A stretch of DNA of 64,000 nt from an uncultured Thermodesulfobacteriota bacterium (GTDB lineage Bacteria > Desulfobacterota > GWC2-55-46 > JADFVP01), in contig CAYOVP010000005.1 in the NCBI GenBank assembly GCA_964407495.1, positions 905 to 64,904 of the forward strand. Reading direction: 5' to 3'. Shown piece after piece: positions 8,432 to 52,527 of this stretch. Position numbers and translations under genes: made by a program. Below the pieces are notes generated by a model. That model searched no databases and had not been told where the DNA came from. It saw only the letters and a program-made list of their open reading frames with translations. Every line of letters begins with the position of its first letter. The stretch's first letter is position 1.

Positions 8432-9082
8432 TCACGAGTCTGAGCGGATCTTCTCTACCTTTTTACGAAGGCTCTTCACGAGGTCTTCGTAGGACGAACG
8501 GCGGATTATCTTGCCGAACTGTGTACGGTAATTGCTCACAAGGCTTACGCCCTCTATCACTATGTCATAGGCCACCCACCTCTCGTCCTTCTTCATCATG
8601 CGGTAGAAGATGGGTATCTCCGTACCCTTGCTGGTAACGACCTTTGTCTTTACGAGCCCCCGGGTGCCCTTCCTGTTCTGCCTCTCATCGAGATACAATA
8701 CCTTGTCGTCCTTATCTGTCTGTTGCTCTATCTTGGATATGTAGGAGTTCTCCAGAAGGTCGCTGAAGAGGTCGACAAACTCTCTTCTCTGCTCTGGCGT
8801 AATCTTTCTCCAGTGTACGCCCAGGGAGCGGCGCGTCATCTCCTCAAAATCTATGGTATCCTCCACAACTGCACGTATACGCTCGCGCCGTTCCTTCTTG
8901 TGGGCCTTGCCCTGCAGGGCAGGGTCTCTCAGCACAGCCAGGGCGCTGTCCACGGTCTGGCGGATACGCTCGGTCATCTGGCCGGCCACTGCGGCATTGG
9001 TAGTAAAGAGGATAGCCAGTAGGGAAAAAGCCACGAGAACAAAGATAGTCCTGTTTTTCAAGATCGCACCACCTTTCTTCAA
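8432..9082 (-). CDS. hpnM: MlaC/Ttg2D-family periplasmic lipid-binding protein, HpnM-like
   Basis: Signal peptide plus Ttg2D/MlaC-like domain ('YDIVIEGVSLVSNYRTQF'). Lies adjacent to hpnN at the edge of the hopanoid locus. Confidence 0.7.
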   Translation of the reverse strand: MKKGGAILKNRTIFVLVAFSLLAILFTTNAAVAGQMTERIRQTVDSALAVLRDPALQGKAHKKERRERIRAVVEDTIDFEEMTRRSLGVHWRKITPEQRREFVDLFSDLLENSYISKIEQQTDKDDKVLYLDERQNRKGTRGLVKTKVVTSKGTEIPIFYRMMKKDERWVAYDIVIEGVSLVSNYRTQFGKIIRRSSYEDLVKSLRKKVEKIRSDS

Positions 9083-10329: not shown

Positions 10330-13005
10330 TTACTTATCGGACCCTGGCAGGAGTAGCGGCAGTACAAAGAGCGTAGAGACAACTGTAAGGACTATGCCCA
10401 CGGTAAGGAGGTGTCCCATACTCGCCATGCCCCTGTGGTGAGAGAAGGCGAGGCCGCCGAAACTTATGACAGTGGTAAGGGCGCTGTAGAAGACCGCCCT
10501 CGAGGTGCTGGACCTCAGGAGAGCGCCCGGCGCCGTGGGCGTGGTGCGCGCCCGGTGCACCACGTGTATGCCGTTATCCACGCCAATACCGAGAAAGAGC
10601 GGCAGGGCGATGATGTTGGCAAAGTTGAATGGTATGTGCAGGATGACCGTTGCCGCGCCCGTAAGGAGCCCGGCGTACACGAGGGGCAGGAGTATGAGGG
10701 CCGTGTCCCTGGCGTCGCGCAGTATGACGAGGAGTATGATGATTATGAAGACAAGGGCATAGATAAAGGCCTGGCGAAAGGCATGCACAACCGTTCGGCC
10801 CGACTCCACTATGACCACCGGAAGGCCCGTTGCGTCCGGCTCTACGGTGCGCACACCCTCCACGAACTCGGCGAGGTCGGCAGGGTCAGAGATGTTCTTC
10901 TTTGGGAAGACCTTTATGAGCCTCGACCCGGTGCGGCCCACCCAGTGCCCGACAAGGTCTGGCGGCAGGTCGCTGAAGGTCACTGGCCCGGCCTCGAGGG
11001 ACTCTCGAAGGAGAGCGAGTCGTGCCGGCAGACCGGCAAGAAGGGCCTTCTCGAACTCCGAGACAAGGGCCTCTCCCTCGCGGGGCCCGGTTTTGTCCAC
11101 CTTTTCCATGAGCGCCTCTATTGCGCTGAGGGTGGCGCCTGCGGCCTCCCTCTCCCCGGGCCTTACTGACTCAGAGGATGCGTATCTCCTGAGCGCCCTC
11201 TCAAGGTCTTTTAGGGCCTCGATACGCGAGGCCCCCTCTTTCCCTGCCCCTGCCGGAGCCGTCTCTTGGCCCCATGGTTCGAGGCCAGGGCCCATGAGCA
11301 TGGATATCTCCTCAATTATATCGAGTTTCTCGTCCTGGTCCCTGGGCACGAAATCATATATGCTCACTGCCTTGTCAACGACTGGAAGGGCCTTGAGTTT
11401 CTTTACGCTCCGGGCAACGTCCTCGCCCTTGCCCTTTACCACCATTATGGTAAGCGGCGAGGAGCCCGGCTCCTTCATTAGTTCGTTGAAGGTGGCAACA
11501 GACTCCATGGAGGCGTCGCGAAGGTTCATGGGATTACCGTCAAAACGCACCCCGCCCAGAAGGGCCACGGAGCCGGCGCCTACGAGGGTAAGGAAAAGGA
11601 GTATGGGGAAGCGCCTGGCGCGGGCCCTGTCCATGAGGCCAGGCCCCGGCGGAGTGCCCGGGGGGGTCTTCGGGTCATGGCCACGCACCCTGAGGGGCCG
11701 GAGAGAGACGAGGGCAGGGAGAAAGGTAAGGCTTACGAAGAGACTGATGAAGATACCCGTGCCTGATATGAGGCCCAGTTCAGATACGCCGGAGTAGGCT
11801 GTCGGCATGAATGAATAAAAGCCCGCGGCAGTGGTGATGGTACAGAGGACAAGAGAGGCCCCAACGTCTCCTGCGGCCATTCGCATGGCCTCGGCGTGAG
11901 GGCGCCCCTCAAAGACGAGTTCACGGTAGCGCAGGCAGAGATGGATGGCAAAGTCTATTCCAAGGCCTATGTACAGGACGGCAAAGGCCATGGAGATCAT
12001 ATTCAGGTTGCCAACGGTTGCCGTGGCAAAGGCCGCTGTGCCTATGATGCCGCAAAGGAGCGTGACCATGGAGGCCACGAGCATGGTAAGGCTCCTGAGG
12101 GCCACGAAGAGTATGATACAGACAGCGAGAAAGGCCGCTATGCTCGCAAGCCCTGCGCCTTGGCTCACGCTCTTGAATTCCTCGTTGGCGAGGGCCACGG
12201 ACCCGGTAAGGCGCACACGCACGCCGCTGGACTCTGTAAGGGAGAGTTCCTGCACCAAGGCCCGTATCCTCTGCATGGCGGCCTCGCCCTGGAAGAGTTC
12301 GGAGAAGTTGAGCCTGGGCTGGACTATGATGAACCGCCTCCTGTCCGAGGGTTTGCTCTTTTTGCCGAGCATTATGTCCTGCCAGGCGAGGCGGTAAAAA
12401 CGCCCCTCTCTCGTAGCGCGCGCCGCTTCCCCAACACCCTCGAGGACAGGCCTCAACTCGAACTCCTCGCCCACGTCGCCCTCTTCCACGGCCTTCATCG
12501 CCTCTTTGAGCATGGAGAAGAAACCACTTAGGCTCTGGTCTGCCATGAGTTTGCCGAGAAAGGGCTGGACCTGGGCAAGGTGGTCTGAGAGGTCTTCGAG
12601 TTTCTCCACGCTAAGGTACAGGAGCCCGTTACGCCTGAAGAACTCGCTCCCACCAGGGCGGTACACGCTCTTGAAGAGCGTCTTCTCCTTGCCAAGGCGC
12701 ACCTCGAGCCTCTCTGCCGCACTCTCGGCAAGCCCTGGTGTGGCGCCGTCTATGACTATGGCTATCTCGCCAAAGTACTCTGGGAACTCCTTCTTGTACT
12801 CGAGGTAGGTCTTCCTCCAGGGGAGTTTCTCGGAGATCATCTTCGAGGCATCGGTGTTGATGCCTATGTGGTGAACCGTGTAGTTGAGAAGGAAGGCCGT
12901 GAGGATGAAGAAGGCGATGACCACTGGCCAGGCATGGGAAGAGACAAAGCCCACCCATGATGAGAGCGCCCTGCCTATGAGACCTGTACTTATGCTCTGT
13001 TTCAT
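10330..13005 (-). CDS. hpnN: RND/MMPL-superfamily hopanoid transporter HpnN-like
   Basis: 891 aa with two 6-TM bundles separated by large periplasmic loops, the MMPL/SSD architecture. Position next to hpnM is typical. Confidence 0.75.
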   Translation of the reverse strand: MKQSISTGLIGRALSSWVGFVSSHAWPVVIAFFILTAFLLNYTVHHIGINTDASKMISEKLPWRKTYLEYKKEFPEYFGEIAIVIDGATPGLAESAAERLEVRLGKEKTLFKSVYRPGGSEFFRRNGLLYLSVEKLEDLSDHLAQVQPFLGKLMADQSLSGFFSMLKEAMKAVEEGDVGEEFELRPVLEGVGEAARATREGRFYRLAWQDIMLGKKSKPSDRRRFIIVQPRLNFSELFQGEAAMQRIRALVQELSLTESSGVRVRLTGSVALANEEFKSVSQGAGLASIAAFLAVCIILFVALRSLTMLVASMVTLLCGIIGTAAFATATVGNLNMISMAFAVLYIGLGIDFAIHLCLRYRELVFEGRPHAEAMRMAAGDVGASLVLCTITTAAGFYSFMPTAYSGVSELGLISGTGIFISLFVSLTFLPALVSLRPLRVRGHDPKTPPGTPPGPGLMDRARARRFPILLFLTLVGAGSVALLGGVRFDGNPMNLRDASMESVATFNELMKEPGSSPLTIMVVKGKGEDVARSVKKLKALPVVDKAVSIYDFVPRDQDEKLDIIEEISMLMGPGLEPWGQETAPAGAGKEGASRIEALKDLERALRRYASSESVRPGEREAAGATLSAIEALMEKVDKTGPREGEALVSEFEKALLAGLPARLALLRESLEAGPVTFSDLPPDLVGHWVGRTGSRLIKVFPKKNISDPADLAEFVEGVRTVEPDATGLPVVIVESGRTVVHAFRQAFIYALVFIIIILLVILRDARDTALILLPLVYAGLLTGAATVILHIPFNFANIIALPLFLGIGVDNGIHVVHRARTTPTAPGALLRSSTSRAVFYSALTTVISFGGLAFSHHRGMASMGHLLTVGIVLTVVSTLFVLPLLLPGSDK

Positions 13006-13289: not shown

Positions 13290-14699
13290 ATGAAAAAGAG
13301 AGAAAAAGACAGCCCTGGCGCCCAGGTATCCACGGCGGTCATCGTGGCCGCAGGGCTTGGTACGCGCATGGAGGGGTACGAAGAAGGGGCTGATCCAAAG
13401 CCACTCCTGCCCCTCGTGGGCGTGCCCATCATTGGCCGTGTCATGGCCGGCGCGGCAAGGGCAGGCATCAGCCGCCTTGTCGTTGTAATAGGCAACAAGG
13501 CAGAGGCCATGAGAGAGCGCCTCCCAACACTCACACCGCCAGGGGCTGAACTGATACTCGTAGAGAACACCCGATACAGAGAGCCCAACGGCCTGAGCCT
13601 CCTTGCGGGCCTTGGCGCAGCACATGGCCCCTTCGCGCTCCTCATGTCCGACCATATCTTCAGCCCGGAGCGCCTGGAACTCGCCATAAAGGCCTTTGGC
13701 AGGGACGGTACGCCGAGGCTCGTTGTAGAGAAGAAAGAGGACTTCACAGGAGACATCGAAGACGCCACCCTCGTAGGCGTAGACAACGAAGGCTTCATCC
13801 GTGCCATAGGAAAGGGCCTTACAGAGTATCACGCTATTGATACGGGCATGTTCGTCCTATGCCCAGACCTCGTGCGTGAGGCCGCAGAAAAGGCCGGCCC
13901 CTCGCCCTCCATCTCGGAGATAATGGGCGTACTCGCAGGAGAAAGAAAACTCAAGGCCCTCTTCCTTGATGCCGGCTACTGGCAGGACGTGGACACTCCC
14001 GCCGACATGCAAGAGGCCGAGAAGAAACTCTACGCATCTCTCGTAAAGCCTGCCGATGGTTTCATGGCCCGGCACGTCAACAGGAAGATAAGCCTCTTTA
14101 TAAGCACCCGTATCTGGCGCTTAGGCGTAACGCCCAACATGGTCACCACCTTTACCCTTGTCCTCGGCCTCCTGGCAGGCCTTGCCTTCTCGCGCGGCCC
14201 CGGGGCTGGCTGGGGGCTCCTTGGGGCCGCGCTCTTCCAGGCACACTCCATAATCGACGGCGTGGACGGAGAACTCGCCAGGCTCCTCCTCAAGGAGAGC
14301 AACCTTGGTTTCTGGTACGATATCGGTGCAGACAACATCACGCACATGGCCGTCTTCGCGGGCATTGCCATGGGGCAGAGGGCAGGGGGCGTGCCCGGGC
14401 CATGGGTGGCACTGGGCATTTTTTCAGCCCTCGGTGTCCTCGTCAGCGTAATAGCCCTCTCGCCCCTGCTGAAACCAGAGAGAAGAGGGCAAAAAGCGGC
14501 CACCAAGAAGAAGGGCCTCAAGAAGACAGTGGAGGCCCTTACGAGCCGGGACTTCTCCTATCTCCTCTTCCCCCTTGCCGTACTGCACTGGCTCGGCGGC
14601 TTTCTCTGGATAATAACCATAGGCACATGGATATACTCGGCACTGGTGATACTACTGAGGCTCAGGGCGCGGCCAGGGGGCGAGGGGGCCGCGGCCTGA
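13290..14699 (+). CDS. Bifunctional nucleotidyltransferase / CDP-alcohol phosphatidyltransferase (IPCT/DIPPS-like: inositol-1-phosphate cytidylyltransferase / di-myo-inositol-phosphate-phosphate synthase)
   Basis: N-terminal NTP_transferase 'VIVAAGLGTRM', C-terminal multi-TM domain with the CDP-OH_P_transf motif 'DGVDGELAR..G....G...D' and 'PNMVT'. Same two-domain order as archaeal/thermophilic IPCT-DIPPS fusions. Confidence 0.7.
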   Translation: MKKREKDSPGAQVSTAVIVAAGLGTRMEGYEEGADPKPLLPLVGVPIIGRVMAGAARAGISRLVVVIGNKAEAMRERLPTLTPPGAELILVENTRYREPNGLSLLAGLGAAHGPFALLMSDHIFSPERLELAIKAFGRDGTPRLVVEKKEDFTGDIEDATLVGVDNEGFIRAIGKGLTEYHAIDTGMFVLCPDLVREAAEKAGPSPSISEIMGVLAGERKLKALFLDAGYWQDVDTPADMQEAEKKLYASLVKPADGFMARHVNRKISLFISTRIWRLGVTPNMVTTFTLVLGLLAGLAFSRGPGAGWGLLGAALFQAHSIIDGVDGELARLLLKESNLGFWYDIGADNITHMAVFAGIAMGQRAGGVPGPWVALGIFSALGVLVSVIALSPLLKPERRGQKAATKKKGLKKTVEALTSRDFSYLLFPLAVLHWLGGFLWIITIGTWIYSALVILLRLRARPGGEGAAA

Positions 14700-15796: not shown

Positions 15797-17110
15797 ATGA
15801 AGATACATATAATCCAGCCCACGCACTTTGCGGCGCCGGGCTCACGCAAACTCTTCAAGACGAGAAAACTCAACCTCGTTCCCCTCTCCATCGCCTACCT
15901 CGCGGCCCTCATGCCAGAGGGGAGCGAGGTGCGCCTTACAGACGAACGGGTGCAGGACCTCGACCTCGACGAGGGCTTCGACCTCGTGCTCATCAGCGTC
16001 TGGACCATAAACTCGCTTCGGGCCTACGAGATAGCCGACGCCTACCGCTCCCGTGGAGTACCCGTCATACTGGGCGGGCCCCACTGCTTCTTCTATGCCG
16101 AGGAGGCCGCCGCCCACGCCGATGCCGTGGGCATAGGCGAGGGCGAGGTCATACTGCCGGATATCTTCAAAGACCTCAACAAGGGTAATCTAAAAAAATT
16201 CTACCATGCCCGCAAGTTTCACGACCTAAAGGGACTGCCCCTGCCGCGCCGAGACCTCCTCGACAGACGGGCCTTTACGCGCTTTCACACCGTTGCAGTG
16301 CAGACGAGCAGAGGGTGTCCCTTTTCGTGCGAGTTCTGCGCCGAGAGGTTCTATCTCGGTTCGAGGTACCGCATGCGGCCCGTTGACGAAGTGGTGGAGG
16401 AGATAAAGGCCACGGGGTCACGCCGCATATTCTTTGCGGACAGTACGTTCTCTGGCAATCGTGGCCGTACCATGCGGCTCATGGAGGCCCTTATTCCGCT
16501 GAAATTAAGGTGGAGCGCCCTCTGGACGGCCAACCGCGTCCTTGAACGCGACTTCATGGAACTGGCCAAGAAAAGCGGGCTCCTCCACGTGAACCTCGGC
16601 ATAGAGAGCATCAAACAGACCACCCTCGACGGCATGCACAAGAAGACCTCCAAGGCCGCTACCCTCAAAGACGTAATAAGGGCGCTTCGAGATCTTGATA
16701 TCAGTTTTTCCTTCAACCTCATCTTCGGCTGGGACACTGACCATGTGGAGGACTTCCAGACAACCCTCCAGTTCCTTAAAGAGAACAAGGTTCACGTCGC
16801 CTTCTTCAACTCCTTCTGCCCTTACAAGGGTACGCCGGTGTACAAGAAGTACCTCGAAGAGGGCCGTATAATAGACCCTGAGAACCTGAATCGCTGGCCC
16901 GGCATCTCGGCCCGTGTACGGCCAAAAAACTTCACTCCCGAGGAACTGGCCCGCGGCATCAGCGAGATGTACAGGGACTTCTACTCCTGGCCCTCCATAC
17001 TCAAGCGCCTGCCCATGCCAACGTCCATGGCCTCCATTACATCCTGGGTCATGAACATCTCGCAGAGAAAGATGGCCACAGGGAAAAACACCAACTTTGC
17101 AGAGTACTGA
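15797..17110 (+). CDS. hpnJ: B12-binding radical SAM protein, HpnJ-like
   Basis: N-terminal cobalamin-binding domain ('VPLSIAYLAA', 'VILGGPH') then radical SAM 'CPFSCEFC'. Cannot exclude an HpnP/HpnR-type methylase from sequence alone. Confidence 0.65.
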   Translation: MKIHIIQPTHFAAPGSRKLFKTRKLNLVPLSIAYLAALMPEGSEVRLTDERVQDLDLDEGFDLVLISVWTINSLRAYEIADAYRSRGVPVILGGPHCFFYAEEAAAHADAVGIGEGEVILPDIFKDLNKGNLKKFYHARKFHDLKGLPLPRRDLLDRRAFTRFHTVAVQTSRGCPFSCEFCAERFYLGSRYRMRPVDEVVEEIKATGSRRIFFADSTFSGNRGRTMRLMEALIPLKLRWSALWTANRVLERDFMELAKKSGLLHVNLGIESIKQTTLDGMHKKTSKAATLKDVIRALRDLDISFSFNLIFGWDTDHVEDFQTTLQFLKENKVHVAFFNSFCPYKGTPVYKKYLEEGRIIDPENLNRWPGISARVRPKNFTPEELARGISEMYRDFYSWPSILKRLPMPTSMASITSWVMNISQRKMATGKNTNFAEY

Positions 17111-17332
17111 ACCTCTGCCGGCACCGCTCTCCGGCAGAGGCTCCTGGCACTGATCTTTCCTTGTTCCTGTTTTCTAATGAGTTGGTTGTTGCGGGCTTGC
17201 CCCGGCCCTGCCTCGCTGACCGAACCTGCCGCTAATAGGGGTGTTCCCTGACCCGCTTTCTTTCTTGAGGATGACGATACTGTGCCCTGCGCGAAAGCCT
17301 CCGCAGGGGAACGTCAGGTCTGCGCTAAAAGC

Positions 17333-17375
17333 GGTTTTCTTTGTCTTACTTTCTTTTTTCCAAAAGAAAGTAAGG
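17333..17375 (+). repeat. Intergenic palindromic repeat, copy 1 (family consensus ggttttctttg-yc-yyactttctttttyccaaaagaaagtrrg)
   Basis: 'ggttttctttgtcttactttcttttttccaaaagaaagtaagg' contains the inverted repeat actttctttt/aaaagaaagt. Near-identical copy at 58203-58245. Confidence 0.8.
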
Positions 17376-17549
17376 TGTTTTTTCTGTCATTTTTTCCCTC
17401 TTCTCTTCTCTCTCCTGCCAGAGAGGGTCTTTCTTCCGTCATTACCTTTCATCCGGCAGGTTTGCAGGGCCGCACCCTCTGTGTTAAACTTCAGGGGTAA
17501 CCTCGGAACACAGTACTGGCCCAGGGAGGGCCTTGGCAGAGATCATCAT

Positions 17550-18596
17550 ATGAGAGAGACCAAGAGAGCAAAGACGAGGCCTGGCCCCATATTCATCTTG
17601 AGGGGGCTCAAGAGGCTCTATGACTCCAAGGCCCTATACGCCCAACTCGCCGTAACAGACGACTGTAACCTCTCGTGTTCATACTGTAACGAATTCACTC
17701 CCGGGGCAAGTCCTCCCGCCCTTTCAGACCTCAAGGCCCGTGTCGACCGTCTCTCGGCACTCGGTGTCATGGTCTTCGATCTCCTCGGCGGAGAGCCCCT
17801 TCTGCACCCCGATATCCTCGAAGTCATCGGCTACATCAAGGCGCCGGGACGCAGAGCAACCATTGTAACCCTCATTACCAATGGTTTTCTCCTGAGCGAA
17901 GACATGGTTAAGGGGCTCAACGACTCTGGCCTCGACATGATGCAGATAAGCGTCGACTCCGCGCATCCCACGGCGCAGTCCGAAAAGTCTCTGAAGTCGC
18001 TCCTGCCGCGCATGAAGATGCTCGCAAGAACGGCCCGGTTCAAGGTAAAGGTCCAGTCTGTTCTAACAAAAGAGACTGCGCGCGAATACGGTGAGTTCAG
18101 GAGGCTCCTGAAGGGGCTTCCCTTTGACTTTGGTTTCTCTCTGCTCCACAGGCCTGGCGGCGGCGTGGCGATAAAGGGAGAAGAGTTCGTCCGACTCCTG
18201 CGCGATGAGAATCTCTTTGCCGGCATGAACCTCTACCGCAGGCACGCCGAGGAGGCCCTGCTGGGAGATTTCTCCAGGCCCTGGAAGTGTCTTGGGGGGA
18301 GCAAATTTCTCTATGTGAACACCCGGGGCGAGGTCCAGTACTGCAGTCAGAACAGGGAGTTCAGGCGGCCCCTCGAAGACTTCGGAAGTAATGACGTCAG
18401 GGCCAACAGGAGACACAAGTCCTGCGAGGCAGGCTGTGTGCTCGGTTGCGCCAGGCTCATCTCCCATGCCCTCGGCGAGCCGGTGCGGACCATGCAGACG
18501 AGTATCGCGCTTCTAACCGGCATAAGGCGGGCCGGGGCAGAGGCAGTACGAGACCAGGGACCACCTCACAGCGCAAGAGGGCCGCGGCCCAGTTAG
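17550..18596 (+). CDS. Radical SAM protein with C-terminal SPASM/twitch-like Cys cluster
   Basis: 'CNLSCSYC' radical SAM motif and C-terminal 'C..G......G.V..C ... CEAGCVLGC'. Start placed at an internal ATG. The ORF track N-terminus (from 17241) runs through the repeat and is not credible. Confidence 0.65.
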   Translation: MRETKRAKTRPGPIFILRGLKRLYDSKALYAQLAVTDDCNLSCSYCNEFTPGASPPALSDLKARVDRLSALGVMVFDLLGGEPLLHPDILEVIGYIKAPGRRATIVTLITNGFLLSEDMVKGLNDSGLDMMQISVDSAHPTAQSEKSLKSLLPRMKMLARTARFKVKVQSVLTKETAREYGEFRRLLKGLPFDFGFSLLHRPGGGVAIKGEEFVRLLRDENLFAGMNLYRRHAEEALLGDFSRPWKCLGGSKFLYVNTRGEVQYCSQNREFRRPLEDFGSNDVRANRRHKSCEAGCVLGCARLISHALGEPVRTMQTSIALLTGIRRAGAEAVRDQGPPHSARGPRPS

Positions 18597-22652: not shown

Positions 22653-23438
22653 TCACTGGCCCTGCGCTCCACTGCCAGGGACGAGTGCAGAAAAAAAACC
22701 CTCGTCCACGAGGGCGCGCCAGGCGCGGCCCAGGGAAGATGTTGCCGAGTCAAAGGACTTCTTGAGATGCACCATCTCCTTCAGAAGGGAGGGCCGCTTC
22801 AGACATCTGCCAAGAAGTCTGCCTGTCATCAGACCACCCTCATCGTCCAGGCAGTCGTAAAGGTCTTCAGATATGCCTTGCTCTGCCGTGTCGCAGACAG
22901 CGCGCATCACAAGAAAGGGCACGCCCTCTCTTGCCGCCAGAGCGGCCACGGCCCCGCTCTCCATGTCAACGGCAAGGGCCCCGCTCTCCCGGAAGAGCCT
23001 GGCCTTGGCCCCTGCAGTGAGTACGGCCCCCGTGGTGCTCACCAGAGGGCCACGCGTAAAAACCACCCCCGCCCTCTTCAGCGCACCTGCCGCAAGGTCG
23101 AGTAAGTCCTTCCGGGCGGCATGGAAACCGCCCCCCCCTTCAAGTATGACCCCTCCGGCGAGAACCACGTCCCCTGAACCGAGTCCTGGTGAGAGGGCAC
23201 CGGAGACGCCAAGACTGAGGAGCAACTCCGCCCCCTCATCAAGGGCCAAGGCCGTTGCCACGGTGGCCCGCTCCATGCCCACGCCAGAGAGCACTGCTAT
23301 GAGTTCACTTACACCAAGGCTCGTCCTCGCCACGGTTGGCCCGCCCTTGCTGGTGCCGCCGCCTGAGGCCTCCCACCTTACGCGGCCAAGCACTGCACGT
23401 GCCTCGGCCCTGAGCGCCAATACGAGACCAACCCTCAC
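22653..23438 (-). CDS. hpnG: PNP/MTA-nucleosidase-family hopanoid-associated phosphorylase HpnG-like
   Basis: PNP_UDP fold motifs ('GVGMERA', 'AVDMESGA'). Directly downstream of shc with a 4-nt overlap. Confidence 0.7.
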   Translation of the reverse strand: MRVGLVLALRAEARAVLGRVRWEASGGGTSKGGPTVARTSLGVSELIAVLSGVGMERATVATALALDEGAELLLSLGVSGALSPGLGSGDVVLAGGVILEGGGGFHAARKDLLDLAAGALKRAGVVFTRGPLVSTTGAVLTAGAKARLFRESGALAVDMESGAVAALAAREGVPFLVMRAVCDTAEQGISEDLYDCLDDEGGLMTGRLLGRCLKRPSLLKEMVHLKKSFDSATSSLGRAWRALVDEGFFSALVPGSGAQGQ

Positions 23439-25507
23439 AGCCCGAGTCTCTTGATGACCGGAATGGTCCAGTCTGGTGGGCGCTCGAGAGATACCTCGTC
23501 CTGGCGGGTCTTTCCTGCATCCTTGAGCCGCCTGTACATGCCAAGGGCCCAGAGAGGAAAGTACAGCCTGTAGCCATGGTACTTGAGATAGAAGACGCGG
23601 GGAAAGCCAGTGCCTGTATAGAATCTCTCATCCCAGGTTCCATCTGGCTTCTGGGTCTGAAGGAGATACTCGATACCCCGCCTCACGGCCTCATCGTCAT
23701 GACCCGCAACGGCCATAAGCCCCATGACGGCCCATGCGGTCTGGGATGGAGTACTCGGGCCCATGCCTGCAAGGCGCGCGTCGTCATAACTCCGGCAGGT
23801 CTCGCCCCACCCGCCGTCGTCGTTCTGGCGCGAGCGAAGCCACGCCGCGGCCTTCTGTATGTAGGGCTGTCCCATCTCCTCACCTGCCCGCTTAAGGCCA
23901 GCCAAGACGGACCACGTGCCGTATATGTAATTTACGCCCCATCTTCCGAACCATGCGCCGCACTCTTCCTGCTCGGCCCGGAGAAACTCGATGGCACGGG
24001 CTACAGGCGGAAAATCGCGCCTGTAGCCCAGCATGGCGAGGACCTCTACACACCGGCCCGTAACGTCAGAGGTGCTGGGGTCGAGGAGCGCACCGTGGTC
24101 GGCAAAGGGGATATCATTCAGGTAGGTGTAGTTGTTGTCGATATCAAATGCGCCCCAGCCGCCGTCCGAACTCTGCATGCCTATTATCCAGTTTACGGCC
24201 CTTGCTATGGGTTCCCTGTATTCTTTCTTCTCCATGGCGCCTGCACGTAGAAGAGACATCACCACCATGGCCGTGTCGTCAGTGTCGGGATAGAAGTCAT
24301 TCTCGTACTGAAAGGCCCAGCCACCAGGCTCCAGATCAGGGGCATTCACAGACCAGTCGCCCCTTACGAATATCTGGTGCTCGAGGAGCCACTTCACGGC
24401 CTTCCCGGCCCTCTCCTCCAAGCCCTCTCCGCCTGCCTCGGCCATGGCCGAGAGAGATAGACAGGTGTCCCAGACCGGAGAGAAACAGGGCTGGCAGAAC
24501 CCCTCGTCGCCGTGCTCCACGAGAAGGTCGTCGAGGGCCTTCATGCCATGGACCATATCAGGGTGGTCCTTGCTGTACCCCAGTACGCTCAGGGCGATGA
24601 GGCAGTTCACCATTGGAGGGAATATGGCCCCTATGCCGCCCTCGCCTCGCATGCGCTCCAAGATGAAACGCTCGGCAAGTGCGGTGGCCCGGTCCTGCCA
24701 GAGTCTCGATATGATGGGATCGAGTCTCTTTATGATACGGTCCACGAGTATGAAGAAGTTCTTGCGCGGCCTGCCGGTGACAAACTTGTCTATGTGGCCG
24801 ATCTTGTCCGGAGGTGATACGAAGAGTTCATAGAGACACTCCTCGGGTCTGAGCGTACAGACCGTCCGGCGGGAGCAGAAGACGAGGAGCGTGACTATCA
24901 CGGTGCGCGACCAGTATGAGACCTTGTCGATATGAAAGGGAAACCAGCGCGGCAGGAGCATTATCTGCACGGGTATGGCGGGTACGGTGCGCCAGGGTAT
25001 CTGACCGTAAAGGGCAAGGAGTATGCGCGTAAAGACATTGACTCGTGCGGCCCCGCCCAGGCTGAGTATGAGTTGCCTTGCGCGGACCATGTGGGGTTCG
25101 TCCGGCGAGTCGCCAGAGAGTTTCAAGGCAAAGTAGGCCTTCACAGTGGCGCTTATGTCCGAGAACCCGCCCTCATAGAGCGGCCAGCCTCCATCGGCAA
25201 GTTGCCCCCGCCGTATGTAGCGCGTGAGGCGTTCCTTCAGGGCCGGATCCATCTCGCGTTCGAGGAAACGCTGGAGTATTATGTACTCGGCGGGGATGGT
25301 GACGTCGGCCTCGAGGTCGAATACCCAGTTTCCAGCCTCCGCCTGCAACCCGCCAAGGGCCCTGAAGGCCCTCTCTGCAGACTCTTCGAGCCCAGGGTAG
25401 GCCCCCAGCCGGTCCTCGACGCGCCGAGCCGCCGGGCCGGCTACCCTGAGCCTCCCTCTCGACCTCTTCATCATGCCAAAGACCTTCTTCTCCTTCATCT
25501 CGCTCAT
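23435..25507 (-). CDS. shc: Squalene-hopene cyclase
   Basis: Catalytic 'DTDDTAMV' (DxDD) motif and multiple QW motifs ('GGWG'). Start placed at an internal ATG with a plausible RBS. The ORF track extends to 25684. Confidence 0.9.
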   Translation of the reverse strand: MSEMKEKKVFGMMKRSRGRLRVAGPAARRVEDRLGAYPGLEESAERAFRALGGLQAEAGNWVFDLEADVTIPAEYIILQRFLEREMDPALKERLTRYIRRGQLADGGWPLYEGGFSDISATVKAYFALKLSGDSPDEPHMVRARQLILSLGGAARVNVFTRILLALYGQIPWRTVPAIPVQIMLLPRWFPFHIDKVSYWSRTVIVTLLVFCSRRTVCTLRPEECLYELFVSPPDKIGHIDKFVTGRPRKNFFILVDRIIKRLDPIISRLWQDRATALAERFILERMRGEGGIGAIFPPMVNCLIALSVLGYSKDHPDMVHGMKALDDLLVEHGDEGFCQPCFSPVWDTCLSLSAMAEAGGEGLEERAGKAVKWLLEHQIFVRGDWSVNAPDLEPGGWAFQYENDFYPDTDDTAMVVMSLLRAGAMEKKEYREPIARAVNWIIGMQSSDGGWGAFDIDNNYTYLNDIPFADHGALLDPSTSDVTGRCVEVLAMLGYRRDFPPVARAIEFLRAEQEECGAWFGRWGVNYIYGTWSVLAGLKRAGEEMGQPYIQKAAAWLRSRQNDDGGWGETCRSYDDARLAGMGPSTPSQTAWAVMGLMAVAGHDDEAVRRGIEYLLQTQKPDGTWDERFYTGTGFPRVFYLKYHGYRLYFPLWALGMYRRLKDAGKTRQDEVSLERPPDWTIPVIKRLGL

Positions 25508-25888
25508 GCCTATCTCTCTACGACGCTCCTCAGATATGATGATGCTCTGAAAGAAAATAAAGGGTTGATTACAGTACTCGATTCTACTAAGGATTAATTG
25601 TACCCATGTTTCTGTCCATTGCAAGCGAAAATAGGGCGAGACATGCCTGCCGCGCCCCAGTACGTAAGGCCGCTTCAGGGTCATGGGGACTCAAGGGTTT
25701 TTTCTTGACTCTTGTTTTTTTTATACCTAAAATGCACAGATACATCCATGCCCGTTGCTATTGGCCCGCCGTACCGTGGGGCTACGCAATCGGAAGCGAG
25801 ACAGCGGGTTGCAAGGCCTGTATGTCAAACCATCTAACAGAACCTTTATTCATCTTGTCTTGAGAAGATGCAAGGAGGGCCACCCCCC

Positions 25889-27040
25889 ATGTCCAGCATA
25901 AAGGTAGCCATAGTGGGAGCGGGCAACTGCGCCAGTTCCTTTATCCAGGGGATTCACTACTACAGGACAAAGACCCCTGAGGAGGCAGTAGGCCTCATGC
26001 ACTGGGAGATAGGCGGGTTCAGGCCCGGTGACATAGACGTAGTTGCGGCCTTTGACATAGACGGGCGCAAGGTAGGCCGTGACATTTCAGAGGCCATCTT
26101 CAGCCCGCCCAACTGCACCCTTGTCTTTCAGGACGATATCCCACCTACAGGCGTTCGCGTAAAGATGGGCCGCGTGCTCGACGGCTTTCCTCCTCACATG
26201 GAGAACTTCAACGAAGAGCGGCGCTTTGTTCTCGCCAGCGAGGCAGAGCCCACAAAAGAAGAAGTAGTGGCCACGCTCCGTGAATCCGGGGCCGAGATAC
26301 TCCTCAACTATCTCCCCGTTGGCTCGGAAAAGGCGACCCGCTTCTATGCCGAGTGCGCCCTCGATGCAGGTCTTGCCATGGTGAACAACATACCGGTCTT
26401 CATAGCCAGTGACGAGACCTGGGCCGCGAGGTTCAGGGAAAGGGGCCTGCCCATTATCGGCGACGACATAAAGGCCCAGCTCGGTGCCACCATCACGCAC
26501 AGGACACTTACGGACCTCTTCAGGAAACGGGGCGTACGCCTCGAACGTACCTACCAACTCAACACAGGGGGCAATACCGACTTTCTGAACATGCTCCAGA
26601 GGACACGCCTCCTCTCCAAGAAGATATCAAAGACCGAGGCCGTCCAGTCCGTGGCAGGGGAGCGTCTCGACGAGGAGAATATACACGTTGGTCCAAGCGA
26701 TTACGTACCCTGGCAGAACGACAACAAGATCTGCTTCATACGCATGGAGGGCAGACTATTCGGCGATGTGCCCATGAACCTCGAACTGCGACTCTCGGTG
26801 GAAGACTCGCCAAACTCGGCAGGAGTGGCAATAGACGCTGTGCGTTGCTGTAAACTGGCCATCGAGCGCGGTCAATCGGGCGTACTCTGCCCGCCATCGG
26901 CATACCTCATGAAACACCCTCCGGTGCAGTTCAATGACGATGATGCGTACAAGATGATAGAGGACTTCATCAGCGGAGACCATGAAAAGAACGAAGAACC
27001 GGCCATAATGGAGAACCACAAGAAGGCAGGTTGCCTCTAA
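25889..27040 (+). CDS. ino1: myo-Inositol-1-phosphate synthase
   Basis: Near-colinear with actinobacterial/archaeal MIPS: '[12 protein letters not shown]', 'YLPVGSE', '[15 protein letters not shown]', '[12 protein letters not shown]', 'DSPNSAG', 'AYLMKHPP'. ATG at 25889 has an AAGGAGG RBS. Confidence 0.9.
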
Positions 27041-42988: not shown

Positions 42989-43723
42989 TCAGAATCTTCT
43001 CGAAATCCGTGCCCTGCCAAGGGGCCTTGGCCCGCCGTCGAACCAGCCGCTCTCGCGGGCGCTGAAGTGTTCGTCGCGGCCTATGATGATGTGGTCCTGT
43101 ACCACGAGGTCCACGGCGCGGGCGGCGCGGTGGAGCATACCCGTGAGTTGCCGGTCAACTGCAGAGGGAGCAGGGTCGCCACTGGGGTGATTATGGACGA
43201 ATATCATTGAGTGGGCGTTATTGCGAAAGGCCCTCTCAATGACCTTCCTGGGGTATACCACGGTCTGGTTTATCGTGCCCTCGTGGAGGGTCTCGATGGC
43301 AAGGAGTTCGTTACGGGAGTTGAGGAATAGTGCGATGAACTTCTCCACCCTCTCGCCTGAGAGCGAGAGGTTCAGATAGTCAAGGACGTCCTTTTTCGAG
43401 CGTATGACGTCCTTGCCCATTATTCTTTCCCGTAGATAGAGGGCCGCCATCTCTTTCATGAACTTGATGAGTACAACGGCGTTCTCGCTGAGGCCTTCTA
43501 TGGAGCGGAGTTCATCTGCCGGGGCATCGAAGACACCGCGAAGCCCCTTGAAGGCCTTGAGCAGGCGTCTTGCCACAGGCCTTACGTTGCTCCTTGGCAT
43601 AGCGAAGGATAGGACGAACTCTATGATCTCGTGTTTCTGAAAACCATGGAGCGAGGTCTTCATGAACCTTGCCATGAGTTTCTTTCTGTATTCTTTTGCC
43701 GCAGAAGCCCTTCCCGTCATCAA
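42989..43723 (-). CDS. radC: RadC-family JAB/MPN-domain protein
   Basis: 'HNHPSGDPAPSAVD' JAMM-like motif and an N-terminal HhH-like region. Confidence 0.8.
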   Translation of the reverse strand: MMTGRASAAKEYRKKLMARFMKTSLHGFQKHEIIEFVLSFAMPRSNVRPVARRLLKAFKGLRGVFDAPADELRSIEGLSENAVVLIKFMKEMAALYLRERIMGKDVIRSKKDVLDYLNLSLSGERVEKFIALFLNSRNELLAIETLHEGTINQTVVYPRKVIERAFRNNAHSMIFVHNHPSGDPAPSAVDRQLTGMLHRAARAVDLVVQDHIIIGRDEHFSARESGWFDGGPRPLGRARISRRF

Positions 43724-43866
43724 GAGACTCCTTTCATGCTACATCGCCTCCCCCAGCCTCACTGCCCGCGGCATGAGATGGCCCGGCATCTCATGAGACG
43801 GCCAGTATCGAGAGCGCAAATATCCTCCTCATATCCACCATGATACAGGAAGCAAAGGATTTTGTC

Positions 43867-43886
43867 TCCTGTACCAGAGTACAGTT
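43867..43886 (+). promoter_or_regulatory. lux-box-like palindrome upstream of luxI
   Basis: 'tCCTGTAccagagTACAGtt' has the same CTGTA-N6-TACAG core and spacing as the canonical lux box. It lies ~90 bp upstream of the luxI start in an AT-rich stretch. Confidence 0.55.
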
Positions 43887-43977
43887 GAAAATCTTTAATT
43901 CTATAACTTTTCGTTTATATTTTAAACTGTCATGGAAGTCAGTTACGCAACGAAGCGATTCCTGTTAAAAAAGCGCC

Positions 43978-44640
43978 ATGGAACTCATGGTGCAGGAAGA
44001 CAACTTCATCATCAAGACACTCAGCGCACACGAAGAACTTGAAGCAGGCTACAGGCTGAGGCACGAGGTCTTCAGCGAGGAACTGAAGTGGGTGCCAGTC
44101 TCGCCAGACGGCATGGAGGTAGACCGCTATGACAGCGGGCCAGTGAGTTATATCGGGGTATTTGACGAGTGGGGGACCCTCCAGGGCTACGCGCGCCTCA
44201 TTACCTCTCCCAACACCTTCATGATCGACAGGGAGTTCGCCTGTCTCCTGGAGGATGGCATGTGCGTGGAGAAGAGCCCGGACATGGCGGAGATAACGAG
44301 GCTCTGTGTGAGGAAACGTGGGAGAAAGGGAGACCTGGTCATGAGGGTCTCCAACTTCCTTTACAAGGGCATATACCTCTGGAGTACGAAAATGGATATA
44401 AGACACCTCGTAATGGTGGTGGACAACAGGTACTACCGTCTTCTACGCTTTACAGGTTTCCCTGTAAGGACGGTGGGCGACTTCATAGAGATGCCCGACA
44501 GCGTGCGGGCCGCGGTGATAAGGCTTGATTGGAGGGAATTCGATAGGATTGCAGTGGAGAAGAAGCCCGAGTTCTTCCACTGGATATCTACACAACCAGA
44601 CCCCGTTCCATCGCCAGTGCTATTGCGTGGGCTTTATTGA
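43978..44640 (+). CDS. luxI: Acyl-homoserine-lactone synthase, LuxI family
   Basis: 'LRHEVFSEELKWVPVSPDGMEVDRYD' aligns with the LuxI-family signature (R..F...LGW....GME.D.FD). Confidence 0.8.
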   Translation: MELMVQEDNFIIKTLSAHEELEAGYRLRHEVFSEELKWVPVSPDGMEVDRYDSGPVSYIGVFDEWGTLQGYARLITSPNTFMIDREFACLLEDGMCVEKSPDMAEITRLCVRKRGRKGDLVMRVSNFLYKGIYLWSTKMDIRHLVMVVDNRYYRLLRFTGFPVRTVGDFIEMPDSVRAAVIRLDWREFDRIAVEKKPEFFHWISTQPDPVPSPVLLRGLY

Positions 44641-45331
44641 CGGCATTGAGTTTGTGCTCTATGTTCTGAACGTGAAACTTCACGGTCCTCTCGCTGATAT
44701 TCAGTATCATGGATATCTCCCAGTTCGTCTTTCCCTCCTTTACCCATGCAAGGACCTCCCTCTCGCGGGCCGAGAGGTCCATTGTACTCCTTTTCTCAAG
44801 CATGCAGACCCTCTCCAGCGCCATGTGAACATGGGGTACGAGGGCGTTGAGAATTTCCTTGTGATGGTCACGGAAGGAATCATCAGGGCCTGAGAAGGAA
44901 AAGACGCTCATGAGCCCTGTTTTCTGCTCGGTCAACCCGGCGGCAACGCCATAGCGCAGGCCGAAGTCGCCGGCAAGGCGCATGAAGGAGATGGCCTCGT
45001 CCAGGTCTTTTCCGGTTATGGCCTCGTTCCACATGAAACTCGACTCTGCTACGACATTGTGAGATACAATGGGGTCGACACTGTAAAGTTGCCTCTGCGC
45101 GTAGATCCTCATCCACTGCGCAGGGTAATCGAGGTTGTATATCTTCTTTACACCAGTAAGTTTTCCAGAGTTTACGATACCAAGGCCGCAGACCCCATGG
45201 TCTGCCTCAACGAGTTCCTTGATCCTCGCAAGCAACCTCGTAAGGTCGGCATCGTTCCTGCACGCAAGGGACGAGTGTATTATGTCGAGGATCTGGGTTA
45301 GTTCTCTTCGTGAGAAATCCTTGTAAGCCAT
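44588..45331 (-). CDS. luxR: LuxR-family transcriptional regulator (autoinducer-binding plus HTH)
   Basis: C-terminal LuxR HTH 'REREVLAWVKEGKTNWEISMILNISERTVKFHV' and an N-terminal autoinducer-binding domain. Convergent with luxI and overlaps it by 53 nt. Confidence 0.8.
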   Translation of the reverse strand: MAYKDFSRRELTQILDIIHSSLACRNDADLTRLLARIKELVEADHGVCGLGIVNSGKLTGVKKIYNLDYPAQWMRIYAQRQLYSVDPIVSHNVVAESSFMWNEAITGKDLDEAISFMRLAGDFGLRYGVAAGLTEQKTGLMSVFSFSGPDDSFRDHHKEILNALVPHVHMALERVCMLEKRSTMDLSAREREVLAWVKEGKTNWEISMILNISERTVKFHVQNIEHKLNAVNKAHAIALAMERGLVV

Positions 45332-45367
45332 AGGGAGCCTCTCCTGGTTGTTGAGGTACGGGTCTTC

Positions 45368-45964
45368 CTACTGAACCACCCTCCTTCTCGATATAGTGGC
45401 CGGTTGCAGAGGTATCTCGGGCCGCCTATCGCCGGTAATAGCCATGTTCAGGTGTAGTGTGAGGGCGCCGAGAAGTTCCTTGTGCCGCTCGGTGAAGACA
45501 TCTTCTGAGGAGGCGAAGCAAAAGAGGCTGAACATGCCCGTGCCCGGCAGGTAAACGCTCGATGATAGGCCGTATCTGAGCCCATAGGCCGCGGCCCACT
45601 CGGTGACGGCCAGGGAGCGCTCATCATTGGTTTTCTGTCTTATCTCGGACCAGAACGCAGGGGCAGAGAACTGCATGTGGTGACGCATGACAGGGTCGTA
45701 ACGATAGAGGCCTTCCCTGAAGTAGAGGTTAAGCCACTCGCTTGGGTAACCGGAATCTAAGATGGTCTCAATATCCATCTTCCCGTTCTCATAGACCCGT
45801 CCCGTGCCGCAGACGGCAAACTCCGCACCGAGCAGGTCCCGTACTCTCGTAAGGAGAGCCGCTGCCGCGTCCTCTGAGGCACAACGGCTGAGGTCATCGA
45901 TGAGTTCGATGACGCTTATGAGGTCACGCTTTGGCAAGACGCTGGAAATGTTCATGAGAAGCAC
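45368..45964 (-). CDS. LuxR paralog with autoinducer-binding domain only (no HTH)
   Basis: Homologous to the N-terminal domain of the adjacent LuxR. It ends just where the HTH would begin ('...ISRRRVVQ*'). Confidence 0.6.
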   Translation of the reverse strand: MLLMNISSVLPKRDLISVIELIDDLSRCASEDAAAALLTRVRDLLGAEFAVCGTGRVYENGKMDIETILDSGYPSEWLNLYFREGLYRYDPVMRHHMQFSAPAFWSEIRQKTNDERSLAVTEWAAAYGLRYGLSSSVYLPGTGMFSLFCFASSEDVFTERHKELLGALTLHLNMAITGDRRPEIPLQPATISRRRVVQ

Positions 45965-45976
45965 CTCTTCAAGCGA

Positions 45977-46648
45977 TTATAGTGGCCACAAAGAACGGAA
46001 GAGACGTCGTATTCTACCCTTTTTCTCTGGTTTTGTAAAGTGGGGGTGTGTCTTCCTGAACTCTGCCATCTCGTCGCGCCTCATCTCCCTACGCTGGTCA
46101 ACGTTCTTCACTGAGTGGCACTTGAAACAGTTTCGTATGGGAAAGGCCACCCTGTCATGGCACCTGGCGCAGTACCTGCCCTTCCAGATGGCGAGCATGG
46201 AGATGCCGCTTGCACCCGCCTTTTTCCTGAATATCTTGGGATGGCAGGGTGCACAGCCGAGCCACTGGTTGTGGACGGAGTGGGGGAAGATGACATCGGG
46301 CATGAACTTGAGTTTGGCCTTGATGAGTACGTCGTCGTTGAAGGCGGGTGGCGGCGGGGCCGGGCTTCCAGGAAAGGCGTCTCTCGGCTTTATGAGCCCC
46401 TCTTTCAGCGCCTTTGCCCAATCGACGAAACCATACTTGTCCTTTGGGAGGTACTCGAGGGGCTTGACCTGGGGCGTTGGGTCCATGATGCCCCACTTGT
46501 TAAGTTTTACGGTAGTGCCTTTTCGCTCTTCGTAGTGCATGGACGGCCTGTCCACCGGCGCAGGCATGAGAGGCAACTCTTCAGCCACCGCGCCAGCGGC
46601 GGCAAGGAAGGTAAGGCTGATGAGGATATTGAGTATAAAGCGTCTCAT
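45977..46648 (-). CDS. Tri-heme c-type cytochrome (secreted)
   Basis: Signal peptide 'MRRFILNILISLTFLAAAGAVA' and three CxxCH motifs ('CAPCH', 'CARCH', 'CFKCH'). Start placed at an internal ATG and may be off by a base. Confidence 0.6.
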   Translation of the reverse strand: MRRFILNILISLTFLAAAGAVAEELPLMPAPVDRPSMHYEERKGTTVKLNKWGIMDPTPQVKPLEYLPKDKYGFVDWAKALKEGLIKPRDAFPGSPAPPPPAFNDDVLIKAKLKFMPDVIFPHSVHNQWLGCAPCHPKIFRKKAGASGISMLAIWKGRYCARCHDRVAFPIRNCFKCHSVKNVDQRREMRRDEMAEFRKTHPHFTKPEKKGRIRRLFRSLWPL

Positions 46649-46962
46649 GGTCCTTACGTCTGTACATGGTGGTACCGTGCCACTGCGCCGGGGCATACAC
46701 AGGGGTATGGGTCTTTGGCAGAGGTGTAGCAGGTGGTAGCGCCAATCTCCCCCCCACCAAGGCACCTGGGCCATCCTCCATCCAGCGCCAGGGGTCTAGC
46801 CCCCCGGCCTGCACCCCATTACCCGACCCCTTCGAGAGGAAGGCGCGCTGGAGCGGCAGAAAGGCCCATGCCGCGGGCCTGGACACAGAGCCCTCACCAG
46901 GCCGAGTTCCAGATGTCATGACCACCGGATAAAATGGAGAACAAAGCCGTATTATAACGCCT

Positions 46963-51726: not shown

Positions 51727-52527
51727 ATGGAAATCCGTAAGGTTGCAATAGAGGCGGCCCTCGAGGCCGGCGCCCTCCTCAAGGGCCGTCTTGGTCATGC
51801 CGGCAGGGTTGACTTCAAGGGCGAGGTGGACATTGTCACGGAGATGGACCGAAGGTCCGAGGGACTCATCGTGGAGAGGATCAGGCGCGAGTTCCCGGGC
51901 CACGGCATCATTGCCGAGGAGAGTGACGAGCGCAAGGCAGCGAGCGGATACCGATGGATAATCGACCCCCTTGACGGCACCACCAACTACTCGCACGGCT
52001 TTCCCGTCTTCTGCGTCTCCATTGGTTTCGAGGCAGAGGGCGAGGTTATCCTCGGTGTTGTGTACAACCCCATGCTCGACGAACTCTTTGTGGCCGAGAA
52101 GGGGCGCGGTGCTCTCTTGAACAACGCACCGATCTCAGTATCGAGGACGGCCTCCCTCGGACGCAGCCTCCTTGCCACGGGTTTTCCCTATGATCTTCGC
52201 ACTGCCAGTGCAAACAACTTCGACCTCTTCAGGAACTTCTCTCTCCGGGCCCAGGCCATAAGGCGTGCCGGCTCGGCGGCTCTCGATCTCTGCTATGTGG
52301 CCTCTGGCCGCTTCGACGGGTTCTGGGAGATGAAACTCTCGGCCTGGGACACTGCCGCAGGCACGCTCATGGTGACCGAGGCCGGGGGTCGTGTCACGGA
52401 TTTTGACGGAGGCCTGTACTCCAACTTCAAGCCCCGGTGTCTGGCCTCGAACGGTCTCATCCACGAAGAGATGATGGAGGTCCTTGGTACTGGGCGCTGG
52501 TGCTCTGTTCGCAAAGGGGACGGCTGA
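51727..52527 (+). CDS. suhB: Inositol monophosphatase family protein (SuhB/IMPase)
   Basis: 'WIIDPLDGTTNY' and 'WDTAAG' motifs. Confidence 0.85.
   Translation: MEIRKVAIEAALEAGALLKGRLGHAGRVDFKGEVDIVTEMDRRSEGLIVERIRREFPGHGIIAEESDERKAASGYRWIIDPLDGTTNYSHGFPVFCVSIGFEAEGEVILGVVYNPMLDELFVAEKGRGALLNNAPISVSRTASLGRSLLATGFPYDLRTASANNFDLFRNFSLRAQAIRRAGSAALDLCYVASGRFDGFWEMKLSAWDTAAGTLMVTEAGGRVTDFDGGLYSNFKPRCLASNGLIHEEMMEVLGTGRWCSVRKGDG

Follow-up and report, generated by a model that had tools for sequence, protein, structure and literature searches.

A conserved LuxR-type receptor without a DNA-binding domain in a three-gene LuxI/LuxR cassette of uncultured Thermodesulfobacteriota

The window analysed here is a stretch of 64,000 nucleotides of contig CAYOVP010000005.1 (positions 905 to 64,904, forward strand) from an uncultured Thermodesulfobacteriota bacterium, and the subject of this work is a set of three adjacent genes within it that resembles a system of quorum sensing through an acyl-homoserine lactone (AHL). 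The luxI gene (43978..44640, plus strand) encodes a protein of 220 amino acids of the LuxI family of AHL synthases (PF00765). It converges with luxR (44588..45331, minus strand), whose product of 247 amino acids carries an AHL-binding domain (PF03472, 68.7 bits, residues 28-171) followed by a GerE helix-turn-helix (HTH) domain (PF00196, 77.9 bits, residues 185-240). Upstream of luxR lies a second receptor gene, called here short luxR (45368..45955, minus strand), whose product of 195 amino acids consists of a ligand-binding domain (LBD) only, with PF03472 (78.1 bits) as its sole Pfam domain. The original prediction, made from the DNA letters without database searches, had described a complete LuxI/LuxR-type module at this place; all its features are found at the coordinates it gave, and searches with PF00765, PF03472 and PF00196 agree with it, yielding 73.8 bits for luxI (Pfam cut-off 24), both receptor domains for luxR and PF03472 alone for the short gene.

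The likely start of short luxR is the ATG at 45955, with a GAGG 6 nt upstream, the longest open reading frame (ORF) beginning at a GTG at 45964. The 195-residue protein read from the ATG is identical to a database protein (P0001). From the stop codon of short luxR to the ATG of luxR there are 36 nt, which contain the ribosome-binding site (RBS) of luxR, GGAGAGG, and the end of the short protein coincides with the start of the LuxR interdomain linker. The earlier description of the second gene as encoding the autoinducer-binding domain alone is thus borne out. Nor is it a frameshifted remnant with its HTH hidden in another frame, since the 36-nt spacer has no room for such a domain and no other frame is open in it. 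In the window, short luxR and luxR share the reading frame across 45332-45367, separated by one stop codon and 12 codons, and read-through would give an LBD-LBD-HTH fusion; in the related locus L001, however, the spacer has 26 nt, so that the two frames do not keep this relation, and such a fusion was discarded as a candidate.

The family of the synthase is well defined by its matches. All the PDB sequence matches of luxI are AHL synthases (6wns, LasI, TofI, BjaI, RpaI and EsaI), and its top NCBIfam models are TraI-type synthases, at about 80 bits. Nine residues, R28, F32, W38, E47, D49, D52, R73, E105 and R108, are invariant in 26 homologues of 39-100% identity and align with LasI at the positions that are R25, F29, W35, E44, D46, D49, R70, E101 and R104 in LuxI numbering. 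With PF00765 and the TraI models as its best matches, the synthase falls outside the non-AHL acyl amino acid synthases, and its placement in the LuxI family by the original prediction holds. By these signatures the product of LuxI would be an acyl-homoserine lactone.

The three genes are inherited together. The order short luxR, luxR and convergent luxI recurs in the genomic contexts gathered from the short LuxR side and, independently, in those gathered from the luxI side, which include a closed 2.75-Mb genome. Short luxR and luxR are adjacent at all loci with enough sequence, the luxR orthologues at the syntenic loci are 66-74% identical, and beside the core of the cassette there is usually a cytochrome c7 gene at one end and radC with a PAS histidine kinase gene at the other. 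The adjacency of the cytochrome c7 gene is kept in L001, L003, L004, L025 and L048-L050; radC adjoins luxI in most relatives and is absent in L014 and L051. At L014 the three cassette genes stand in an unrelated neighbourhood and therefore seem to travel as a unit. At L051, which has the most distant of the luxI relatives examined (47% identity), luxR and luxI form the convergent pair but neither short LuxR nor radC is present, and the locus acts as a natural outgroup. In the window, housekeeping genes (RNase J, PlsC, peptidase U32 and Mfd) flank the module, which places it in the core chromosome. The named records of the relatives are all metagenome-assembled genomes (MAGs) of uncultured Thermodesulfobacteriota or 'Deltaproteobacteria'. 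A metagenome scan with the regulatory DNA motif gave 20 matches, L042 being the sole true relative and the other 19 being chance matches without LuxI/LuxR ORFs; a scan with protein patterns gave 563 pattern matches, none of which was confirmed. The MAG that holds L014 also contains a second copy of the cassette (L015, contig CAVSHY010000028.1), 95% identical and with frameshifts in short luxR and luxI, which may represent a duplicate in decay, a variant strain or indel errors of the assembly.

Conservation of the short receptor is deep. A word-indexed search returned 24 clusters at 57-73% identity to it, all of 181-197 amino acids and with PF03472 only, and this close family has 55 invariant columns. 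At least 16 further, more distant clusters lie beyond it, the overall length being about 161-203 amino acids. When 1.84 billion representatives were searched exhaustively with a profile, 17 clusters (each at 50% identity; 161-203 amino acids) ranked above the first full-length LuxR. The truncated paralogue is hence HTH-less at a constant length of about 195 amino acids across its clade, which answers the question of its conservation raised with the original prediction. In the deep clade, at 25-38% identity, the equivalents of TraR Y61, D70, P71, W85 and G113 are invariant and that of W57 is kept in 17 of 19 sequences; all six pocket residues are also present in the consensus of the companion LuxRs. 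Searched as a profile against the PDB, the family aligns with the LBD of CviR, and the AHL-contact residues are conserved. The AlphaFold2 model of the short LuxR (predicted local distance difference test 82.3, predicted template modelling (TM) score 0.79) is confident to residue ~177 and ends, after the last LBD helix, in a disordered tail of ~18 amino acids; in Foldseek it superposes on the CviR LBD with TM scores of 0.76/0.82 and a root-mean-square deviation of 2.6 Å, the following matches being CepR2, QscR, RhlR, LasR, TraR and SdiA. These comparisons indicate that the short LuxR is a real protein under selection with an intact AHL pocket, and it would still bind AHL.

Short LuxR and LuxR are 29% identical over 167 amino acids, with the resemblance strongest in the pocket and in the last LBD helix. 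Among full-length proteins, the companion LuxRs are the closest to the short family. In a neighbour-joining tree the short proteins group across species and not with their own neighbouring LuxR, the deep nodes being weak, so that the evidence of the tree for monophyly of the short clade is suggestive but weak. The pattern agrees with an ancient tandem duplication after which one copy lost its HTH, all before the divergence of these lineages; it is the low identity of the two receptors that makes the duplication old.

The region between luxI and the divergent radC-like gene (42989..43723, minus strand; JAB domain, PF04002, 135 bits) was compared at 15 loci, with LuxI identities from 100% down to 45%. 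In the alignment upstream of luxI, conserved blocks stand out from an otherwise diverged spacer: two dyads, a -10-like element and the luxI start. Box 1 (43869..43884, CTGTAC-N4-GTACAG), the one noted in the original prediction, is the best match in the window to a position weight matrix (PWM) derived from both boxes (21.4 bits). The exact motif CTGTA-N6-TACAG occurs in the 64 kb once, at 43869-43884, and about one match is expected by chance when one mismatch is allowed. As a single site box 1 is for this reason weak evidence, and its significance rests on its conservation in the relatives: it is present in the 15 loci at the same position, with conserved arms and a variable centre, which secures the lux-box core that had been claimed. 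Box 2 (43927..43942, AACTGTCA-N4-AGTCAGTTAC, with a CTG-N10-CAG core) is the second-best match to the PWM in the window (17.4 bits) and is present in 14 of the 15 loci at -51/-52 from the luxI ATG; L026 keeps its right half only. Both boxes have the 16-20 bp dyad with a CTG-N10-CAG core by which lux boxes are defined.

Each box keeps a fixed distance to a -10-like hexamer, 22-24 nt overall, which predicts a box centre at about -43.5 from the start, the position classical for class II, and hence each box seems coupled to its own hexamer. For box 1 this hexamer is on the opposite strand, at 22-24 nt (23 nt in 13 of 15 loci), and is a perfect TATAAT in 11 of the 15; in the window it is TATCAT. 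There, the promoter scan places a divergent sigma-70-type promoter at 43840..43868 (minus strand; -35 GAGACA at 43868-43863 and -10 TATCAT at 43845-43840), with a predicted transcription start site (TSS) near 43833. The distance from box 1 to the luxI ATG, on the other hand, floats from -109 to -120. Box 1 thus probably belongs to a divergent promoter, which in most genomes is directed at radC, the candidate target of the box. Between the predicted TSS and the radC start (43723), in the putative 5' untranslated region of radC, there is an inverted repeat at 43772-43795, CATGAGAT-N8-ATCTCATG. At L051, box 1 abuts a consensus TTGACA-16-TAAAAT promoter, which points at an ORF of 46 amino acids (3533-3673, minus strand) and a prepilin-type N-methylation-domain protein (2655-3227, minus strand). 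As radC is missing from that locus, the divergent lux-box promoter would be older than its association with radC.

For luxI, a control by box 2 in class-II geometry is favoured. Box 2 lies 23-24 nt from a TGnTA(A/T)A(A/C)(A/C) element, and in 15/15 loci the gap between the end of this element and the luxI ATG is 6-7 nt; in the window the extended -10-like element is TGTTAAAAA (43963..43971, plus strand) and ends 6 nt before the ATG. The original prediction had placed box 1 at the classical distance from luxI; its geometry fits the opposite-strand promoter better, and it is box 2, which had been missed, that has the class-II geometry. No Shine-Dalgarno sequence precedes the luxI ATG in the window (L026 has a candidate AGGA), and the start context CATGGA (C-1/A+1) is invariant in all 15 loci, the longer CATGGAACT being found in 13. 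Because the -10-like element ends so near to the ATG and the Shine-Dalgarno is absent, the luxI mRNA is predicted, not securely, to be leaderless, with a TSS that coincides with the A of the ATG or adjoins it. An alternative -10 candidate for luxI, TATAAC (43902..43907, plus strand), is located 17 nt downstream of box 1, a less canonical gap, and is conserved among the close relatives (TACTAC in L014/L015). If TATAAC were the luxI -10, the centre of box 1 would fall at about -37.5, and box 2, as an operator, would lie at about +20.

The PWM, run over the window and about 10 loci, found no further strong lux box in the window or within 4-5 kb in the relatives' loci, and none upstream of short luxR, luxR, the cytochrome c7 gene or RNase J; nothing therefore points to a direct autoregulation of the operon on the luxR side. 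Its third-best match in the window, at 8313-8330 (14.4 bits), was rejected as more hairpin- or terminator-like than operator-like. It falls in a perfect GC-rich palindrome at 8311-8333, GGCCTGTCTC-AC-GAGACAGGGCC, which is intergenic and downstream of the ORF at 8432-9082 (minus strand).

We propose that the three co-inherited genes form a chromosomal AHL-type quorum-sensing cassette that would work as follows. LuxI would produce an AHL, which the full-length LuxR would bind in order to act at the two CTG-N10-CAG boxes. At box 2 it would switch on the luxI promoter, closing a positive feedback through a leaderless luxI mRNA, and at box 1 it would act on the divergent promoter towards radC. Short luxR, probably read from the same transcript as luxR, would yield a product that also binds AHL and pairs with LuxR through the ligand-binding domains, in the AHL-dependent manner of TrlR with TraR and of CerN with CerM. 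The pairing would alter the amount of LuxR competent for DNA binding and so set the threshold and the sharpness of the response. Considering that (i) the partner gene is adjacent, (ii) the divergence of the two receptors is ancient and (iii) the pocket is intact, which is the situation of CerN, we favour contact through the LBDs and hold it on balance probable that an AHL-dependent contact of this kind tunes the pool of LuxR able to bind DNA.

Several points weigh against this proposal. Co-transcription at a roughly fixed stoichiometry would be odd for a purely dominant-negative partner, and therefore the heteromer may have a positive or a sensor role instead. The single origin of the short clade is weakly supported, with 19 of the 25 sequences in one neighbour-joining clade at a bootstrap of 24/100 and a full-length protein placed among the stragglers outside it. 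The equivalog-level NCBIfam scores of luxI are all far below their cut-offs. Both proposed luxI -10 hexamers (TAAAAA and TATAAC) are without the usual T at -7, and the AGGA of L026, 5 nt before the luxI ATG, is a possible RBS; the leaderless prediction is not secure on both accounts. Finally, every organism of the lineage is a MAG.

An HTH-less second receptor is a known, rarely documented way to tune quorum circuits. CerN of Cereibacter sphaeroides is 31% identical to the adjacent CerM, binds it only with AHL and releases it from DNA (PMC11655674). By its published description this is the system most similar in layout: an LBD-only LuxR beside a full-length paralogue near luxI, an ancient divergence (31% there, 29% here) and a retained pocket. 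The two differ in lineage, Alphaproteobacteria there and Thermodesulfobacteriota here; in C. sphaeroides an extra cognate receptor, CerR, is encoded between cerM and cerI, whereas the present cassette has a single full-length LuxR; and the LBD-only form here is a multi-species clade in a fixed three-gene cassette, with a function that we infer. According to published summaries, TrlR is 88% identical to TraR, lacks the DNA-binding domain, binds AHL and forms inactive heterodimers with TraR. Like TrlR, the short LuxR is a LuxR-type protein without DNA-binding domain that has a full-length partner in the same genome. However, TrlR belongs to octopine-type Ti plasmids of Agrobacterium tumefaciens, where it is a truncated copy of recent date, is under opine regulation and is encoded apart from TraR, whereas the short LuxR has 29% identity to its partner, lies on the chromosome in operon linkage with it and is conserved in many species. 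The mark of a recent derivative highly similar to its target is thus missing from the short LuxR, given this identity and its clustering across species.

The promoter arrangement has its counterpart in the LuxI/LuxR system of Vibrio fischeri (lux box at -42.5), which shares the synthase and receptor families, the CTG-N10-CAG dyad of 16-20 bp and a weak -10 without -35, at what is here a predicted class-II distance from the box. The cassette differs from that of V. fischeri in that luxI and luxR converge and overlap instead of diverging, two boxes attend two divergent promoters, the luxI mRNA would be leaderless and an LBD-only receptor is added. In their convergence and overlapping 3' ends, luxI and luxR resemble the EsaI/EsaR-type pairs of Pantoea, Pectobacterium, Yersinia and Serratia. 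The EsaR-type receptors of such pairs are dissociative repressors with characteristic extensions, and we know of no LBD-only partner in them.

The two HTH-less LuxRs described before are single-organism cases, TrlR being a recent accident on a Ti plasmid and CerN belonging to one Cereibacter strain. In the lineage studied here an HTH-less LuxR is stably inherited within a three-gene cassette by many species of non-proteobacterial anaerobes (at least 17 clusters at 50% identity), and such inheritance argues for a selected circuit element and against decay. LuxI/LuxR with an HTH-less paralogue being already known, what is notable is the lineage, the depth of conservation of the LBD-only form and the clean promoter architecture. 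A search of a literature library found no paper linking Thermodesulfobacteriota with LuxR/AHL systems and none tying lux boxes to a leaderless luxI, and the LuxI genes validated in a cold-seep survey were from Nitrospirota and Pseudomonadota, not from Thermodesulfobacteriota. Probable AHL signalling is thereby extended to hopanoid-making, probably thermophilic Thermodesulfobacteriota, where the stability of the AHL lactone at high temperature becomes a question. The locus is moreover a compact, clonable system, three genes and a 140-bp control region with two boxes, in which the effect of an LBD-only receptor on quorum thresholds could be tested, and it yields falsifiable predictions in the assignment of the boxes to promoters and in the leaderless luxI.

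The polarity of the circuit could be the opposite of that proposed. LuxR would then bind the boxes in the absence of signal, as repressor or activator, and the short LuxR would be the primary AHL sensor, its AHL-bound form stripping LuxR off the DNA. CerN acts on CerM in this way, with the same layout and a similar identity to its partner (~31% against 29% here). Box 1 abuts a good -35/-10 that may need no activation, and with TATAAC as the luxI -10 box 2 would occupy the repressor-like position at about +20. Convergent overlapping luxI/luxR pairs are, besides, typical of EsaR-like dissociative receptors. Against this, the pocket motif of LuxR is fully conserved, so that AHL is probably sensed by LuxR itself; the luxI promoter lacks any -35 besides the box and so seems to need an activator; and in the 247 amino acids of LuxR the long linker or C-terminal extension of the EsaR class was not seen, no formal test of this having been made. 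We regard this polarity as unlikely. Equally doubtful is the composite and more far-reaching claim that a split receptor senses the signal through the short LuxR as an obligatory subunit, in a three-gene cassette fixed across a deep thermophile-like clade, with a leaderless luxI transcribed from a lux-box-dependent extended -10; were it true, AHL reception by two proteins would be a lineage-wide design and not an oddity of one Cereibacter strain.

A pure ligand sink, in which the short LuxR binds AHL without ever contacting LuxR, buffers the intracellular signal and raises the quorum threshold, would agree with the intact, invariant pocket and with co-expression with luxR across the 36-nt spacer. 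However, strong conservation reaches the last LBD helix, where the two paralogues are most alike, and both of the LBD-only LuxRs studied work by protein-protein contact, which makes the sink improbable.

The signal itself might be other than an AHL, LuxI producing an N-acyl amino acid or another acylated product, as FeeM or an exosortase-associated acyltransferase/EpsA pair would, to be sensed by both receptors. Some sources label luxI homologues as generic GNAT, and luxI has secondary matches to FeeM (31.5 bits), Acetyltransf_5 (25.2 bits) and TIGR03694, the exosortase-associated acyltransferase (63.9 bits), with an EpsA match at 100.6 bits. The PF00765 and TraI models outscore FeeM and TIGR03694, respectively, and the TIGR03694 and EpsA matches are below their cut-offs (111.95 and 170, respectively). 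The nine invariant residues are those associated in LuxI with S-adenosylmethionine (SAM) and lactonisation, and the AHL pocket signature WYDPWG is kept in both receptors. Neither in the window nor in the relatives' loci examined is there a PEP-CTERM or exosortase context around luxI. The exosortase-acyltransferase/EpsA reading was ruled out by its sub-threshold scores together with the missing context, and a non-AHL signal in general appears very improbable.

That short luxR is a non-functional remnant, a decayed duplicate or a frameshifted copy, as its tandem position, its missing HTH and the frameshifted second cassette of L015 might suggest, is effectively refuted by the lack of sequence to hold an HTH, the age of the duplication (29% identity), the constant length with 55 invariant columns over 24 clusters, the retention of the clade with its pocket residues down to 25% identity and the confidently predicted fold. 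The original prediction had left open a decoy, an anti-activator or a decayed duplicate; constant length, intact pocket and fixed synteny dispose of the last, and the conserved clade, the pocket and the synteny make the first two the class now favoured.

The 3' ends of luxI and luxR overlap convergently by 53 nt (44588..44640), as had been described together with a possible antisense interference. The overlap is of 53 nt in the 12 distinct loci measured, of 62 nt in L048-L050 and of 110 nt in L026. Of the 18 LuxR wobble positions inside it 17 are variable, as compared with 11 of the 35 other positions, and conservation of the LuxI tail is poor. For these two reasons the length of the overlap would be mostly a by-product of the conserved C-terminus of the LuxR HTH. 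The only hint of selection on the luxI stop is given by the Val codons, GTC or GTT, that preserve it in all 11 loci. The overlap itself therefore stands, and its use as evidence of an antisense device does not, given the wobble pattern and the other lengths of 62 and 110 nt; as a selected antisense element the 53 nt were rejected on the codon-position analysis, which reveals LuxR coding constraint. Interference by convergent transcription of luxI and luxR could nevertheless occur.

On the other side of the receptor genes, a cytochrome c7-like gene (45977..46774, minus strand, PF14522) ends 21 nt upstream of short luxR and is probably co-transcribed with it; the versions of the relatives are called as proteins of ~190-223 amino acids. 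The promoter scan places a promoter-like site at 46039-46011, inside the 3' end of this gene. The multihaem cytochrome c7-like gene, whose position is kept in most relatives, may share a transcript with both receptor genes. At gathering thresholds, the window contains no known RNA families.

The host had been described as thermophile-like and hopanoid-producing, and the gene content of the window makes this reasonable, with a squalene-hopene cyclase and a probable di-myo-inositol-phosphate pathway, the relatives being uncultured Thermodesulfobacteriota. The cyclase (PF13243/PF13249, 500+ bits) is found near an MMPL transporter and a pair of radical-SAM proteins, of which one carries a B12-binding domain; these hopanoid-type genes, at 23435-25684 (minus strand), 10330-13005 (minus strand), 15797-17110 (plus strand) and 17241-18596 (plus strand), look like a cluster for hopanoid biosynthesis or modification. 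Three further genes, at 13290-14699, 25868-27040 and 51727-52527 (all plus strand), are of inositol type and comprise a fused NTP-transferase and CDP-alcohol phosphatidyltransferase, a myo-inositol-1-phosphate synthase and an inositol monophosphatase, a set that we take to be the expected di-myo-inositol-phosphate pathway. Di-myo-inositol-phosphate is a compatible solute typical of thermophiles and hyperthermophiles, and the host is probably a heat-loving anaerobe.

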